A stretch of DNA of 64,000 bases from positions 32,001-96,000 of IMG/VR virus record IMGVR_UViG_3300042305_001986; one strand, given 5' to 3'. Positions 2,762 to 45,695 of the stretch are shown one piece after another (the first letter of the stretch is position 1; the number at the start of each line of letters is the position of its first letter). The DNA is from a virus. The notes beneath the pieces are model-generated. The model was not told the DNA's origin and searched no databases. It saw only the letters and a list, made by a program, of their open reading frames with translations. Made by a program: the position numbers and the translations under genes.

Positions 2762-4306
2762 ATGATTGATGCAAGTAGTTCGAGTACAAAGATAATTCAT
2801 CCTGGTGTATGTATATCGGTTGATGACCCTTTGGTCATTGGTAGAATTCGTGCCCATCCGTCCACACGATATATCAATGATATTGTCAAAGCAAGTTTTC
2901 CAAATGAAGTGTTCGATATACCAGGTGATATCCCATCTAAATATTTTTGGACAAAAAGAGATCCATTTGTTTTTAACTCACTTATTCCTTACTTTTTTAG
3001 ACAAGTCCCTCGTGTTGGTGAGTATGTTCATATCATTTATTCAAATCCAAGTTTTCAGGATGATAAGAACAAATTTTATGTTCAAGGTCCGATTTCATCA
3101 CCTACTCTTCAATACAAAGATGTTGCTGCAAATGCAGAACAATTGTTAACTTTGGGTGATAGAGTAAAATCTATGCCCAACCTTAAAAATTCTGACGGTT
3201 CATATAAAAACCCCAAAACCCAATCTATTTTCCCTGACCCTAATGACGTGGCAATTTTGGGAAGATACAACACGGACATAATATTAAAGGATGAAGATGT
3301 TATATTGAGGGCTGGAAAAGCAAAATCTATTGGTTTAAAGAATGCCAACGGATCAACATTTCCTTATGAGAACCCAAGAAGATCTTTTATTCAATTAAGT
3401 AACTTAGAAACTACGACTTCAGAAAAAACAATCAAGAAAGTTTTTAAAGCCGAGCAAACAGATGCTAATTTAACATACTTGGTTGAATGGGATATAATAA
3501 ATCTTAATAGTGGTGCTAATTTTACGGGTTCAATTTATTTTTATAGAATTGATGCTGGTCAAAATACAAAAACAAAAGATGTTTTACCTGACACCGTTAT
3601 TGAAGGAAAAACTTTAGCTTATAAAGAAGATTTTCAGGGTTTGTCTATGAGTGCAGCAACTGAATTTATCAATACCACAATGGCTAAGTTTAAAAATTCT
3701 ACCCTTACCATTTCCCCCTCTTTAGGGAATGTTTTTCCTTTTTATTATAGACCTAGTCAAAATGTTTTAAATACCACAACTCAAACCTCAGATCCCCTTT
3801 CTTTGGTCAATGCGTTGTCTTTTCAAAGTCAGATAGGTTTATCTTTGAGTTCAACAGAATCATCAGGTTTTGGGGGGTTCGGTTTAATCTTCTCGAAAGA
3901 TAAAAAAGGTAATCCAATTCAAATTAAACAGATTAATTTGGAGGACAGTAAAACCTCATCCGATAATTCTACAGTTCAAATATTTGGTGCAGATAAATTC
4001 TACTTTATATCACATCAATCTACAATACCCGGAAAAAAGAAAATCAATTTAGAAGGAACCAATTATGGAGTTTCGGGTGATTTTATAAATGAAAATGTTA
4101 TTGAAAACGTTTCATCTATGGTCAGAGGTGAGGAGTTATTAGAGTTATTGAATTATATCATTCAGTATTTGATAACTCACGTTCACTCATATCATGGATT
4201 ACCACCAGTACCAACCACAACAAACGGATCAACAACAACTGAATTGATGAAAAAGATGATGGACGCTTACCAAAAAGTTTTGAGTCAAAACTTTAAGTTG
4301 AATTGA
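2762..4306 (+). CDS. baseplate central spike/hub protein (gp5/VgrG-like)
   Basis: N-terminal GVCISVDDPLVIGRIRA fits the gp5/Vgr OB-fold start; C-terminal THVHSYHG is a spike-tip-like HxH motif. Confidence 0.6.
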   Translation: MIDASSSSTKIIHPGVCISVDDPLVIGRIRAHPSTRYINDIVKASFPNEVFDIPGDIPSKYFWTKRDPFVFNSLIPYFFRQVPRVGEYVHIIYSNPSFQDDKNKFYVQGPISSPTLQYKDVAANAEQLLTLGDRVKSMPNLKNSDGSYKNPKTQSIFPDPNDVAILGRYNTDIILKDEDVILRAGKAKSIGLKNANGSTFPYENPRRSFIQLSNLETTTSEKTIKKVFKAEQTDANLTYLVEWDIINLNSGANFTGSIYFYRIDAGQNTKTKDVLPDTVIEGKTLAYKEDFQGLSMSAATEFINTTMAKFKNSTLTISPSLGNVFPFYYRPSQNVLNTTTQTSDPLSLVNALSFQSQIGLSLSSTESSGFGGFGLIFSKDKKGNPIQIKQINLEDSKTSSDNSTVQIFGADKFYFISHQSTIPGKKKINLEGTNYGVSGDFINENVIENVSSMVRGEELLELLNYIIQYLITHVHSYHGLPPVPTTTNGSTTTELMKKMMDAYQKVLSQNFKLN

Positions 4307-31339: not shown

Positions 31340-31384
31340 TTTGATTTTATCTAAAAAGAATATGTATATTTGTAGTGTTCTTTG
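31340..31384 (+). promoter_or_regulatory. Bacteroidota-type promoter (-33 TTTG, -7 TAnnTTTG) followed by boxA-like GTTCTTTG
   Basis: tttg 31340, tatatttg 31365-31372, gttctttg 31377-31384. Confidence 0.7.
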
Positions 31385-31391
31385 ATATTAT

Positions 31392-39575: not shown

Positions 39576-39620
39576 GATTATAAAATTAAAATAAACTATA
39601 ATTCATTTAAAATTTTAATT

Positions 39621-40115
39621 ATGGAAGCTGTTTTGGTTTTAAACGCAGATTATACACCCATCAATACAACAACTTTAACGAGGGGATTCGTCTTGGTACA
39701 TAAAGGAAAGGCTGAAATTTTGAAAGGAGGAGAAAAACCCATCGCAACTTCGATCGGAAATTTTATCAGACCGTTGATCATTCGTCTTTTGCATTATGTA
39801 AGTTTTAGACCCGTGAAATCACGTATCTCAAGACACAAGATATACAAAAGAGATAATCATGAATGTGTTTATTGTGGAACCAAAAATGATCTATCCATCG
39901 ATCACGTAATTCCAAAATCAAGGGGAGGAGGGAATACTTGGGCAAATCTTGTGACTTGTTGCAAGAAATGTAATTCAAGGAAGGGGAATAGAACTCCTGA
40001 AGAAGCAAATATGAAATTTGTAAAAAAGGTTGAAGTACCCAAAACTTTCTGTGGGATCTTTACAGTTGAAGCAGAAAAAATGTATAATGAGTTTATGACA
40101 AGTTTCTCTTATTGA
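39621..40115 (+). CDS. HNH endonuclease (HNH_5/McrA-like)
   Basis: VLVLNADY; RDNHECVYCG..SIDHVIPKSRGG.NTWANLVTCC..CN..KGNRTP. Confidence 0.9.
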   Translation: MEAVLVLNADYTPINTTTLTRGFVLVHKGKAEILKGGEKPIATSIGNFIRPLIIRLLHYVSFRPVKSRISRHKIYKRDNHECVYCGTKNDLSIDHVIPKSRGGGNTWANLVTCCKKCNSRKGNRTPEEANMKFVKKVEVPKTFCGIFTVEAEKMYNEFMTSFSY

Positions 40116-40159
40116 TTTTTTTAGAATAATTCATATATTTATAATCAGAATTTAAAACA

Positions 40160-40243
40160 ATGCTCAACAAAAAAGGACATATCAAAGGATTTAACGGCTG
40201 TGATTGGCAGCAGGAACCACCATGTCCATTTGTTCGGGTATAA
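40160..40243 (+). CDS. putative attenuator leader peptide MLNKKGHIKGFNGCDWQQEPPCPFVRV (27 aa)
   Basis: ATG in A-rich context after TATTTAT (40136-40142); 3' end overlaps the antiterminator arm. Confidence 0.7.
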   Translation: MLNKKGHIKGFNGCDWQQEPPCPFVRV

Positions 40244-40297
40244 AAAGTATATTTTTAAAAAAAATGTAACCCGAACAACAAAAGTTCGGGTTTTTTG
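40230..40297 (+). terminator. terminator/antiterminator switch upstream of the tRNA array
   Basis: Terminator aacccgaac(40268-76)/gttcgggtt(40284-92) plus T tract; ttgttcgggt (40230-39) is the perfect complement of acccgaacaa (40269-78). Confidence 0.8.
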
Positions 40298-40300
40298 TTG

Positions 40301-40320
40301 TATATTTGTGTTGTTCTTTG
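40301..40320 (+). promoter_or_regulatory. TAnnTTTG element plus boxA-like GTTCTTTG
   Basis: tatatttg 40301-08, gttctttg 40313-20; no clear -33 TTTG. Confidence 0.6.
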
Positions 40321-40339
40321 ATATATGAGGAAAAAAAAA

Positions 40340-40411
40340 GCAATGGTAGCTCAATGGTAGAGTTCCAGTCTTCCAAACTGGATGTTGTGGGTTCGAATCC
40401 CATCCATTGCT
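40340..40411 (+). tRNA. tRNA-Gly(TCC)
   Basis: Cloverleaf; anticodon loop CTTCCAA; TTCGAAT T-loop. Confidence 0.95.
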
Positions 40412-40418
40412 CAAAAAT

Positions 40419-40519
40419 AGTCAGGTAGTGGATATGTAAGCGGGCTCAAGCTCGGTAAGTCGAAAAGGTATGATCCTCTTTACGAGGCCACATTGCAGGT
40501 TCGAATCCTGTCCTGACTT
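40419..40519 (+). ncRNA. tRNA-like RNA (acceptor stem + T arm, non-canonical middle)
   Basis: AGTCAGG/CCTGACT stem; GCAGG-TTCGAAT-CCTGT; no canonical D or anticodon arm. Confidence 0.7.
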
Positions 40520-40525
40520 CAAAAT

Positions 40526-40601
40526 GCGTCAGTAACTCAATTGGTAGAGTGGTTATCTCCAAAGTAACAAGTTGTGGGTTCGAGTCCTACCTGACGTGCC
40601 A
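40526..40601 (+). tRNA. tRNA-Trp(CCA)
   Basis: Cloverleaf, loop CTCCAAA, encoded CCA end. Confidence 0.95.
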
Positions 40602-40605
40602 ATAA

Positions 40606-40676
40606 GGTCGGATGTCCGAGTGGTTAGGTGAATCTCTGCAAAAGATTTAACACTGGTTCGAATCCAGTTCCGACCT
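40606..40676 (+). tRNA. tRNA-Cys(GCA)
   Basis: Loop CTGCAAA, U73. Confidence 0.95.
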
Positions 40677-40680
40677 CTAC

Positions 40681-40751
40681 TTCTCCATAGTATAATGGTA
40701 AAACAACGGATTTTGGTTCCGTGGTTTTAGGTTCGAGTCCTGATGGGGAAA
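40681..40751 (+). tRNA. tRNA-Gln(TTG)
   Basis: Loop TTTTGGT, U1-A72. Confidence 0.92.
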
Positions 40752-40766
40752 CAATGTTATATATTA

Positions 40767-40858
40767 GGTGTGGGCATGACCACAAATAAACAAAGGCGGG
40801 TTGGTTTCCCAACTTCGGAGAAATTCGGAGAGTCTGAGTTCGATTCTCACCCACACTC
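40767..40858 (+). ncRNA. tRNA-like RNA / degenerate tRNA
   Basis: GTGTGGG/CCCACAC stem; TGAG-TTCGATT-CTCA T arm; internal hairpin GGGTTGG-TTTC-CCAACTT; no D arm. Confidence 0.55.
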
Positions 40859-40881
40859 TAATATATAATTAATTATAAAAT

Positions 40882-40953
40882 GGCCCATTCGTCTAAAAGT
40901 AAGGACATTTGGTTTTCATCCAAAAAATCTCGGAGCGTTACCGGGATGGGCTA
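40882..40953 (+). tRNA. tRNA-Glu(TTC)
   Basis: Loop TTTTCAT; atypical T-loop AGCGTTA. Confidence 0.88.
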
Positions 40954-40961
40954 CTAATAAA

Positions 40962-41033
40962 GGTCTATTGGTGAAGTGGCTATCATACCTGCCTGTCACG
41001 CAGGAGTAGAGGGGTCGGAACCCTCATAGACCG
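40962..41033 (+). tRNA. tRNA-Asp(GTC)
   Basis: Loop CTGTCAC, G73; atypical T-loop GTCGGAA. Confidence 0.9.
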
Positions 41034-41052
41034 CATTTGTTTTATTAACTCC

Positions 41053-41093
41053 ACCGAAAAACCCACAAATCTTTAGTTTGTGGGATAAAAGGT
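41053..41093. mobile_element. hairpin resembling an orphan IS200/IS605-family end
   Basis: cccacaaa-tctttag-tttgtggg-at; CTTTAG loop and GTGGGAT flank; no U tract. Confidence 0.35.
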
Positions 41094-41131
41094 TTGATTA
41101 AACATTTCTTAATTTAGGAATATTTATTTAC

Positions 41132-42403
41132 GTGAGAGAGCAAATACGCAAAATTCTAAAAGAATTATTTTCAGGTGACGGTTCCGTAACCTTTAGTTTT
41201 CGTGATATGAAGGCTTTTAAACCAACATACACTAATGCTCCGTGGAGGGTATACTTTAATGGTTTAAAAATAAAAGATGGTCAATATTCACATGGTGAAA
41301 ATACATATATAGATTTGATTGGAAATGATGTTGAGTTGAGAGGTATTAATCCTATAGATTTTATGAGTGATGGAAAATCGGGTTACGTTGACCTTTACAA
41401 ACTTGAAGAAATAAAACCTGATATTCGTGAAATTTTGTTCGGTAGTAAGGATAGTGGAAAAGTAAAATCAGGTGTCGGTCCTGTAACCTTTAGTTTTCGT
41501 GATATGAAAGCTTATAAACCAACATACGGTCCGTGGAGGGTATACTTTAATAACTTAGAAACCAAAAAAGGCCAATATTCACATGGTAAAAATACATATA
41601 TAGATTTGATTGGAAATGATGTTGAGTTGAGAGGTATTAATCCTACAGATTTTAATTTTACGGAAGATGGAAAATCGGGTTACGTTAAGCTTTACAAACT
41701 TGAAGAAATAAAACCTGATATTCGTGAAATTTTGTTCGGTAGTAGGAATAGTGGAGAAGTAAATTCAACTTTAATTAGGAGTGCGTTAAAAAAGGCGTTT
41801 CCAAATAATTGGAAAGAACGAGATGAAATATATAGCGCAGGTATTAGAGATATAAATACAATAGGTGAAAGAACGGGTAAGGGCGAGTCATGGTCAATTA
41901 TGAATTATTTTGATACAAAAAAAGAAGTACAAAAAAAAATATCACAAAAATGGAATAATGAAGGTGAAGGAGATTTAGAGGAATGGTTAGTTGATGTATT
42001 TAAAAACGACAACAATTTTATGAAAGAGTTATTGGATATCCAATGGAGGTCAATAGAAAATGGTTATAATACTGAGATATATGCCTCAGAAGTAATTTCT
42101 AATCATATACCAGGTAATCTTGAGTTGTTCCCTCCTGGTTCTATAATTGACCGATACGGTTCAATAGACATGATTATTGGGGGTCAGAGTTTTCAAATAA
42201 AACCTTTATCTGGTCTCCTCGTAAAAGACGGTAAATATTTTGTTAAAACTTATGGTATGAAGAAGGACTATAAAAGTAAAAAAATTGATTATATTGTTTA
42301 TGCAAAAATAGGTGGTAAGGTATATGTTTTCCCTAATAAAAACTATGAAGTAGGTGGTGGAGGTAGTGAAGTGACACATTTTGAAAAACCTACAATCTAT
42401 TAA
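41132..42403 (+). CDS. protein with two ~100-aa tandem repeats and a C-terminal PD-(D/E)XK-like domain
   Basis: IRKILKE leader; IDRYGSIDMII....FQIKP motif; TATTTAT upstream. Confidence 0.65.
   Translation: MREQIRKILKELFSGDGSVTFSFRDMKAFKPTYTNAPWRVYFNGLKIKDGQYSHGENTYIDLIGNDVELRGINPIDFMSDGKSGYVDLYKLEEIKPDIREILFGSKDSGKVKSGVGPVTFSFRDMKAYKPTYGPWRVYFNNLETKKGQYSHGKNTYIDLIGNDVELRGINPTDFNFTEDGKSGYVKLYKLEEIKPDIREILFGSRNSGEVNSTLIRSALKKAFPNNWKERDEIYSAGIRDINTIGERTGKGESWSIMNYFDTKKEVQKKISQKWNNEGEGDLEEWLVDVFKNDNNFMKELLDIQWRSIENGYNTEIYASEVISNHIPGNLELFPPGSIIDRYGSIDMIIGGQSFQIKPLSGLLVKDGKYFVKTYGMKKDYKSKKIDYIVYAKIGGKVYVFPNKNYEVGGGGSEVTHFEKPTIY
41171..41764 (+). repeat. ~297-bp intragenic tandem duplication
   Basis: Units start at 41171 and 41468 (VTFSFRDMKA...KPDIREILFGS). 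Confidence 0.9.
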
Positions 42404-45597: not shown

Positions 45598-45695
45598 AGT
45601 CAGGTGGCGGAATTGGTTAGACGCACTCCTCAAATAAGATGTGTATAGGCTACGCGCTAATCCTATACGTACAGGTTCGAGTCCTGTCCTGACTA
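45598..45695 (+). ncRNA. tRNA-like RNA with unpaired anticodon region
   Basis: AGTCAGG/CCTGACT stem; Leu-like D arm; GTATAGG/CCTATAC extra arm; ACAGG-TTCGAGT-CCTGT. Confidence 0.7.

Follow-up and report, generated by a model that had tools for sequence, protein, structure and literature searches.

The standard attenuators of biosynthesis operons, trpL, hisL, pheL and leuL, are chromosomal and each sense a single amino acid, and the trp and his attenuators follow a three-state logic. Multivalent attenuators are found in enterobacteria, where the ilvGMEDA leader carries Ile, Leu and Val codons and the thr leader carries Thr and Ile codons. The pheM leader, likewise chromosomal and responsive to one amino acid, controls pheST (phenylalanyl-tRNA synthetase) through the decoding of its Phe codons. 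T-boxes are not translated and bind uncharged tRNA directly, with alternate terminator and antiterminator folds. Here we describe a leader region ahead of a tRNA array in an uncultured lake phage, located in a 64,000-nt piece (record positions 32,001-96,000) of the IMG/VR record IMGVR_UViG_3300042305_001986. The whole piece is called the window below, and coordinates are window positions unless a contig is named. The leader region contains a short open reading frame (ORF) and an intrinsic terminator, and seven consecutive codons of the ORF call for just those amino acids whose six tRNA genes lie downstream. The element is likely to be a working leader-peptide attenuator for the phage tRNA array.

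The element belongs to the functional class of leader-peptide attenuators and to no described sequence family. It has an ORF between a promoter-like box and an intrinsic terminator, regulatory codons that match the regulated genes, and two mutually exclusive predicted folds, in which the 5′ arm of the antiterminator lies where a terminating ribosome would mask it. Rfam gave no family other than tRNA and transfer-messenger RNA (tmRNA) at the gathering threshold over the window; in 40100-41150 at E ≤ 10, the only further matches were weak ones to Thr_leader (17-19 bits, E of about 1-2, with a gathering score of 55), and no T-box appeared. Like the ilvGMEDA and thr attenuators, the element has a multi-amino-acid codon cluster and overlapping hairpins, and read-through upon stalling and termination of untranslated RNA are predicted for it. 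Unlike them, it precedes tRNA genes rather than genes for biosynthetic enzymes, the sensed set being the roster of the array, and it is borne by a phage with a Bacteroidota-type host, with no relationship to them by sequence or Rfam family. It shares with pheM the control of translation-apparatus genes by a leader-peptide attenuator, although the target of pheM is a synthetase and not tRNA genes. As in T-boxes, the status of tRNA would be sensed by a terminator/antiterminator switch before translation-related genes, but the signal in the present element is tied to the frame of the ORF.

The nearest published case that we found is an extra tRNA array of Anabaena sp. PCC 7120, in which the trn operon (L-array) is induced under translational stress through promoter repeats (PMC8421152). 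The two arrays are alike in that expression rises, or here would rise, when translation is impaired; none of the strings "attenuat-", "leader" or "terminator" is present in the main text of that paper. TrcR, the repressor of the Anabaena trn operon, appears in PMC10272220, and PMC3082878 mentions a tRNA operon in passing only. In the literature covered, which mostly leaves out subscription journals and old scans so that absence is unproven, we found neither leader-peptide control of tRNA genes nor leaders that list a whole array. A leader attenuator of E. coli tRNA-Phe genes was considered as a precedent and dropped, as the tRNA of K-12 pheV is immediately preceded by a plain promoter, with no ORF of the leader type.

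Leader ORF, terminator and predicted folding states

The leader ORF (40160-40243, plus strand, as are all features of the locus) consists of 27 sense codons and TAA and encodes MLNKKGHIKGFNGCDWQQEPPCPFVRV. Codons 13-19 (40196-40216; GGC TGT GAT TGG CAG CAG GAA), hereafter the sensor run, read GCDWQQE, exactly the six amino acids of the downstream array, as established from the translation and the tRNA calls. The array (40340-41034) comprises Gly(tcc), Trp(cca), Cys(gca), Gln(ttg), Glu(ttc) and Asp(gtc), all six called by both ARAGORN and Rfam. In a simulation using the amino-acid frequencies of long ORFs, the probability of a run of at least seven set residues in 26 was 1.1e-3, and it was about 2e-5 when all six identities were also required; both values concern this one leader.

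An A/U-rich spacer separates the ORF from the intrinsic terminator (40268-40297), which is formed by arm 2 (40268-40278), a loop of 7 nt, arm 3 (40284-40292) and a T-run. Its hairpin (40268-40292) has nine pairs, five of them G-C, and a predicted energy of -13.1 kcal/mol. Within codons 24-27 of the ORF, the sequence ttgttcgggt (40230-40239, arm 1) is the exact complement of acccgaacaa (40269-40278) in arm 2. The alternative hairpin spanning 40230-40278 is predicted at -16.7 kcal/mol (z -5.5), a value matched by none of 200 shuffles. Arm 1 is thus assigned as the 5′ arm of an antiterminator from complementarity, predicted fold and the covariation described below.

Folding was modelled with a ribosome that masked all RNA through 12 nt beyond the A-site codon. 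The naked RNA of the window is predicted to fold into the terminator, while the 5′ part of the ORF (region 0, 40160-40180) pairs with the arm-1 region in the minimum-energy folds and would act as an anti-antiterminator. With the A site at codons 1-19, the full antiterminator was predicted, except at codon 16, where the two folds were 0.4 kcal/mol apart; with the A site at codons 20-28, that is, from codon 20 to the stop, the terminator was predicted. The boundary between the two outcomes falls directly after GCDWQQE. In this model, the sensor run therefore comprises the last seven codons at which a stalled ribosome could still prevent termination, and the copy in the window is a clean example of a run that ends at the last codon predicted to allow the antiterminator. 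The predicted folds follow the same three-state logic as trp and his attenuation.

The initial annotation, made from the sequence alone, had proposed a tRNA-sensing attenuator at this locus. The ORF, the codon run, the 10-nt arm with its complement, the terminator and the six tRNAs were all found where it had placed them, and the three folding states predicted for such a device were seen in the folds modelled for the window. Its suggestion that EPP in the leader might be a polyproline stall site did not hold, since close relatives have EPS and EPL at this position, and the motif was ruled out as part of the device.

Leaders, arms and arrays in related phages

Modules of this kind were sought by fixed rules in 311 sources, consisting of 310 loci and the window, many of the scanned loci being unrelated DNA pulled in by loose patterns. 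The rules required a first tRNA with no other tRNA in the preceding 450 nt, a hairpin resembling a terminator no more than 130 nt upstream of it, and, as the leader, the longest ATG ORF of 12-60 amino acids ending 10-50 nt before the hairpin. The scan gave 250 distinct array starts. A terminator of this kind was lacking at 208 and present at 42, and 39 of these 42 also had the ORF. The 39 modules fell into 28 clusters at 50% leader identity and stand before differing arrays in related uncultured phages, with array sizes ranging from 1 to 17 different amino acids. Two looser pattern scans of viral contigs returned unrelated DNA and no new module. The cultured Flavobacterium phage immuto was rejected as a further case: a 51-amino-acid coding sequence ends 24 nt before its tRNA-Ser, but no terminator is present.

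The composition of the leaders follows that of the arrays. For example, FAAFAAEEDD lies ahead of a Phe-Glu-Asp-Ala array, TTADRTEAE ahead of Glu-Ala-Asp-Arg-Thr, TPGTEGDTP ahead of Glu-Thr-Met-Gly-Asp-Ala-Pro, and LLRRL, whose leader contains nine Leu and four Arg, ahead of Leu-Arg-Leu. For the counts, tRNAs were assigned to one array until a gap exceeding 700 nt was reached, start Met was excluded, and expectations were taken from long ORFs of the same loci. Over the 28 clusters, 385 of 815 leader residues belonged to the leader's own array, against 275.3 expected, and the mean z of the match was 1.84, against -0.02 ± 0.23 when leaders and arrays were permuted, a value reached in 0 of 20,000 permutations. 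The mean z was 1.65 when the gap rule was set at 300 nt, and single-linkage clustering at 35% or 30% identity (24 or 21 clusters) gave the same match result. The match was stronger in the middle of the leader, which alone contained 250 own-array residues out of 451 (153 expected). Viewed from the arrays, 175 of 190 identities were represented in the leader belonging to them, whereas permutation gave 137.9 ± 6.4 (maximum 161; Mantel-Haenszel chi2 58).

The match was specific to the reading frame and to a part of the leader. In-set residues made up 47.2% in the frame of the ORF, whereas the alternative frames gave 32.8% and 27.2%. Their fraction peaked at 0.50-0.75 in the region 9-15 codons ahead of the stop; over the final eight codons, where the arm is encoded, it was at background. 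Where a contig carried two or three modules, the leader matched its own array better than another array of the same contig in 12 of 14 comparisons (mean z 2.31 vs -0.87). For Arg, Leu and Ser, 38 of 54 leader codons fell in the codon box read by an anticodon of the array (31.4 expected, z 2.05), and 32 of 42 did so after removal of the last six codons (24.2 expected, z 2.74).

Pairing between the ORF and the terminator was measured as the longest Watson-Crick run between the last 33 nt of the ORF and the left arm of the terminator. The run averaged 6.43 in own pairs and 4.07 ± 0.21 in permuted pairs, with 0 of 20,000 permutations reaching the observed mean. Runs of at least 7 bp occurred in 17 of 28 own pairs but in 1.1% of 700 unrelated pairs, in which the left arms shared no 7-mer. 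In most cases, 2-15 nt lie between the end of arm 1 and the stop, and the paired arm sequences differ widely between clusters (e.g. GAGGTGGG, TCCGAAGG, TCCCGAGG and GGAGATG). In terms of sequence comparison, pairing kept through such unrelated sequences is covariation. The initial annotation had named two comparative checks, co-variation of leader composition with array content and compensatory change in the antiterminator pairing; both were run over the 28 clusters and both came out in its favour. When the folding model was applied to the clusters, a ribosome at the stop was predicted to leave the terminator in 28 of 28, naked RNA to form it in 21, and a mid-run stall to abolish it in 18.

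The closest relatives were identified through the HNH-endonuclease gene (39621-40115), which lies upstream of the module. A search with its protein yielded 69 related loci, four of them at ≥ 90% identity, and three of these contigs carry the same module. Compared with the window, the three leaders vary at five codons, comprising two synonymous changes, K5T, P21S/L and P23S, with 96% column identity. GCDWQQE is unchanged in all three, as part of an invariant stretch of codons 11-20 that is not significant alone. In one relative, L064, an insertion of 1.24 kb (contig positions 3500-4755) with minus-strand genes separates the HNH gene from the module, whose left border lies immediately ahead of the TATATTTA box; the leader, its promoter box and the terminator therefore move together with the array rather than serving the gene upstream. 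Two minus-strand ORFs in this insertion are rich in GGTTGAGGTTGAG-type repeats. In the fourth contig, L066, a 90%-identical sister, the same site (3493-3900) carries an 84-codon ORF, the same promoter-boxA block (see below) and an array of Tyr, Ser, Gly, Ile, Asn and Met tRNAs, and leader and terminator are absent.

Promoter boxes, the boxA-like element and the surroundings of the array

A promoter-like -7 box, TATATTTA (P1, 40134-40141), lies 18 nt 5′ of the leader ATG. With at most one mismatch, TATATTTATA occurs 44 times in the window against 15.5 expected, 5-20 nt before the ATGs of real genes; 40134, 42956, 50430 and 53468 are examples of these sites. TATATTTATA is probably a phage promoter class in which A replaces the final G of TAnnTTTG, and a TAnnTTT[G/A] box lies within 60 nt upstream of the leader ATG in 23 of the 28 clusters. 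We infer promoter activity for P1 from these sequence features.

A second box, TATATTTG (P2, 40301-40308), follows the terminator, as the initial annotation had cautioned when it noted a TAnnTTTG element that might drive the array independently. Four nucleotides 3′ of P2 lies GTTCTTTGA (40313-40321), which resembles an rrn-type boxA. The 26-nt block containing both (40299-40324) recurs with 92% identity at 31363-31388, directly before the phage tmRNA gene. In the window, GTTCTTTGA is found 4 nt after TAnnTTTG before tmRNA or tRNA genes at 31377, 40313, 42911, 45014, 46709 and 53074. An exact-pattern scan of viral contigs for the promoter-boxA block gave 60 stretches, 50 of them distinct. ARAGORN placed a tRNA no more than 100 nt downstream of 12 of the distinct stretches and a tmRNA 27-28 nt downstream of 8 others.

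In its classical layout, rrn boxA is present in both the rRNA leader and the spacer, and boxA and Nus-factor antitermination are known as a mechanism from the E. coli system. A whole-genome look at two metagenome-assembled genomes (MAGs) of Flavobacteriales supports the boxA reading of GTTCTTTGA. One of them, L433, has the motif at 488, 677 and 2632 (three matches against 0.04 expected), with 16S at 781-2299 and 23S from 2701. Two sites thus precede 16S, by 293 and 104 nt, and the third precedes 23S by 69 nt, within a 16S-tRNA-tRNA-23S spacer, so that both leader and 16S-23S spacer of this complete operon carry the motif. The other, L434, has GTTCTTTGA twice upstream of 16S, and its contig ends inside the gene. 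The same motif thus follows phage stable-RNA promoters and stands in host-type rRNA operons, which suggests that the phage borrows the rrn boxA antitermination signal of its host for stable RNAs. A scan of bacterial genomes for TAnnTTTG-N4-GTTCTTTGA gave at least 121 matches, among which none had a 16S start within 900 nt; among the matches listed, three were before tmRNA and one before tRNA-Gln. The array of the window thus probably has its own promoter and a Nus-factor loading site. The boxA-like element would be an accessory part of the leader module only, and a role of NusB/S10 is proposed by analogy. In phage immuto (L432, 8083-8100), GTTCTTTGAAAT lies directly after a tRNA gene, and the boxA-like element is therefore not restricted to the uncultured clade.

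The array itself contains more than the six tRNAs. In the gap at 40413-40525, a tRNA-like RNA (40419-40519) has an acceptor stem and a T arm and no anticodon arm; it scored 24.4 bits with the Rfam tRNA model (threshold 29), and ARAGORN found no tRNA in this gap, intron and low-threshold options included. The gap at 40753-40881 contains a second structured RNA of tRNA size (-40.9 kcal/mol, z -5.8; none of 200 shuffles reached this), for which neither ARAGORN nor Rfam called a tRNA. With these two, the array consists of six recognisable tRNAs among eight RNAs. A third structured RNA of tRNA size is located outside the array at 45598-45695 (37.4 bits, no ARAGORN tRNA call). Between 41132 and 53500, the other nine tRNAs of the window are single or paired, between ORFs of about 200 amino acids, and some carry their own TAnnTTTG-GTTCTTTGA blocks. 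By the rule-based scan, none of these nine has a leader-terminator module, and in the whole record the first array alone has it. In the related phage L046, about 5.1 kb downstream of the promoter block and on the minus strand, ARAGORN called a tRNA with anticodon CTA beside a tRNA-Cys; this amber-reading tRNA, labelled Pyl, may be a suppressor tRNA.

The parent IMG/VR record is 118.5 kb long with a completeness estimate of 39%. Most of the stretch was present in 18 DNA runs from lake or fresh water, and the leader was identical in DNA contigs from two other samples. Two RNA runs contained 6% of its words, and the contigs from these runs (three per run) were pieces of relatives over 39845-40051 and 39927-40175, plus cross-matching tRNA fragments. 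A blastn search of GenBank phages with 39600-41200 gave short tRNA matches alone and no relative, and tblastn with the HNH protein gave no close cultured relative, the top matches being cyanophages and actinophages at 39-46% identity.

Proposed mechanism and alternative explanations

We propose that transcripts from P1, starting at about 40134-40150, carry the 27-codon leader, which would poll the six amino acids of the array. When codons 13-19 are decoded fast, the ribosome would reach the stop and cover arm 1, arms 2 and 3 would form the terminator, and transcription would end at about 40297. When a cognate aminoacyl-tRNA is scarce, the ribosome would linger at a position up to codon 19, arm 1 would pair with arm 2, and no terminator would form; the antiterminated polymerase would then read over boxA into the tRNA genes. 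In untranslated RNA, arm 1 would fold onto the start of the ORF and transcription would terminate. The net effect would be negative feedback, with more tRNA transcription whenever the pool of those tRNAs, from host and phage together, limits translation. P2 and boxA after the terminator would provide basal, attenuator-independent expression, to which the switch would add a demand-dependent component. Because P2 follows the terminator, the switch in the window would modulate rather than fully gate the array, gating only transcripts from the upstream promoter. This interpretation, already outlined in the initial annotation, is supported by comparison of related modules. Anticodon nucleases, degradation of host tRNA and plain feedback on the output of phage tRNA are conjectural triggers. 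It is possible, but in our view doubtful, that the phage tRNA arrays of this clade are controlled by a two-step RNA gate, in which a roster leader polling each encoded tRNA is followed by an rrn-type boxA that renders the released polymerase resistant to termination. Such a gate would serve as a counter-defence homeostat: stalling in the leader would turn on precisely the tRNAs that replace those removed by host anticodon nucleases or degraded during infection.

Several observations weigh against an attenuator that controls the array. The folding model is crude, as everything 5′ of the ribosome was masked and the 12-nt downstream edge was assumed, and its mid-run stall leaves the terminator in place in 10 of the 28 clusters. 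The z of the leader-array match is ≤ 0 in five clusters. Among five related pairs with differing arrays, the residue of the extra tRNA was more frequent in the corresponding leader in 9 cases, equally frequent in 8 and less frequent in 4 (p = 0.13). N- and C-terminal motifs recur among the 28 clusters, so that independent origins number fewer than 28, and the sequences of the close relatives are too alike to show selection on the leader. Within the sensor run, GGC is not the Watson-Crick codon of Gly(UCC), and CAG pairs with Gln(UUG) by wobble only. The contigs from the RNA runs, which end at 40175 or within the HNH gene, are uninformative on starts, ends and read-through. Finally, in the window the terminator is not the only route to the regulated genes: the P2 box, identical to the tmRNA promoter, lies after it, so the array is not dependent on the switch.

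The position of P2 leads to an alternative that we consider unlikely, namely that the switch is real and senses codon translation but that its output is not extra tRNA. P1 read-through would then interfere with P2 or time it, or a short RNA or peptide would be the product, and P2 would drive the array. The arrangement of P2 and boxA in the window fits this explanation, and a TAnnTTTG box is located between terminator and first tRNA in 17 of the 28 clusters, the window included. However, in seven other clusters only 14-24 nt separate the T-run of the terminator from the first tRNA and contain no promoter box, and in the remaining four a boxA-like element alone intervenes. In these 11 clusters, read-through is therefore the sole visible entry to the array and must transcribe it. 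In addition, the matching of leader and array would be purposeless unless tRNA output were the target.

That the locus is an ordinary gene end followed by a promoter, with the terminator insulating the array, P2 driving the tRNAs and the small ORF present by chance, appears very improbable. The ORF is indeed short and unannotated, the order of terminator and then promoter is common, and P2 is clearly a shared stable-RNA promoter; but a chance origin is difficult to reconcile with the low probability of the complete run, with an ORF at nearly every array terminator of the census, or with a frame-specific match unattained by permutation and an arm that covaries with the terminator. In L064, moreover, the genes upstream of the module are divergent, so that there is nothing to terminate. 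An untranslated, T-box-style RNA sensor that uses the codon run as specifier triplets is hardly credible: the triplets are complementary to anticodons of the array, but the Rfam scans of the window show neither a T-box nor any other riboswitch family, all modules possess an ATG and an open frame whose stop falls at arm 1, and the signal is in the ORF frame alone and ends eight codons before the stop, as the footprint of a ribosome predicts.

Leader-peptide attenuation is textbook knowledge for amino-acid operons, and tRNA genes as its target appear to be new in the literature covered. If the attenuator reading is true, synthetic biology would gain a small, programmable device for sensing individual tRNA pools, and leader composition would be a sequence signature for the functional grouping of phage tRNA genes. 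It would also mean that large phages gauge how well the infected cell can decode and supplement particular tRNAs as they are needed, which would bear on why phages carry tRNAs, whether for matching of codon usage or for replacement of degraded or cleaved host tRNAs.

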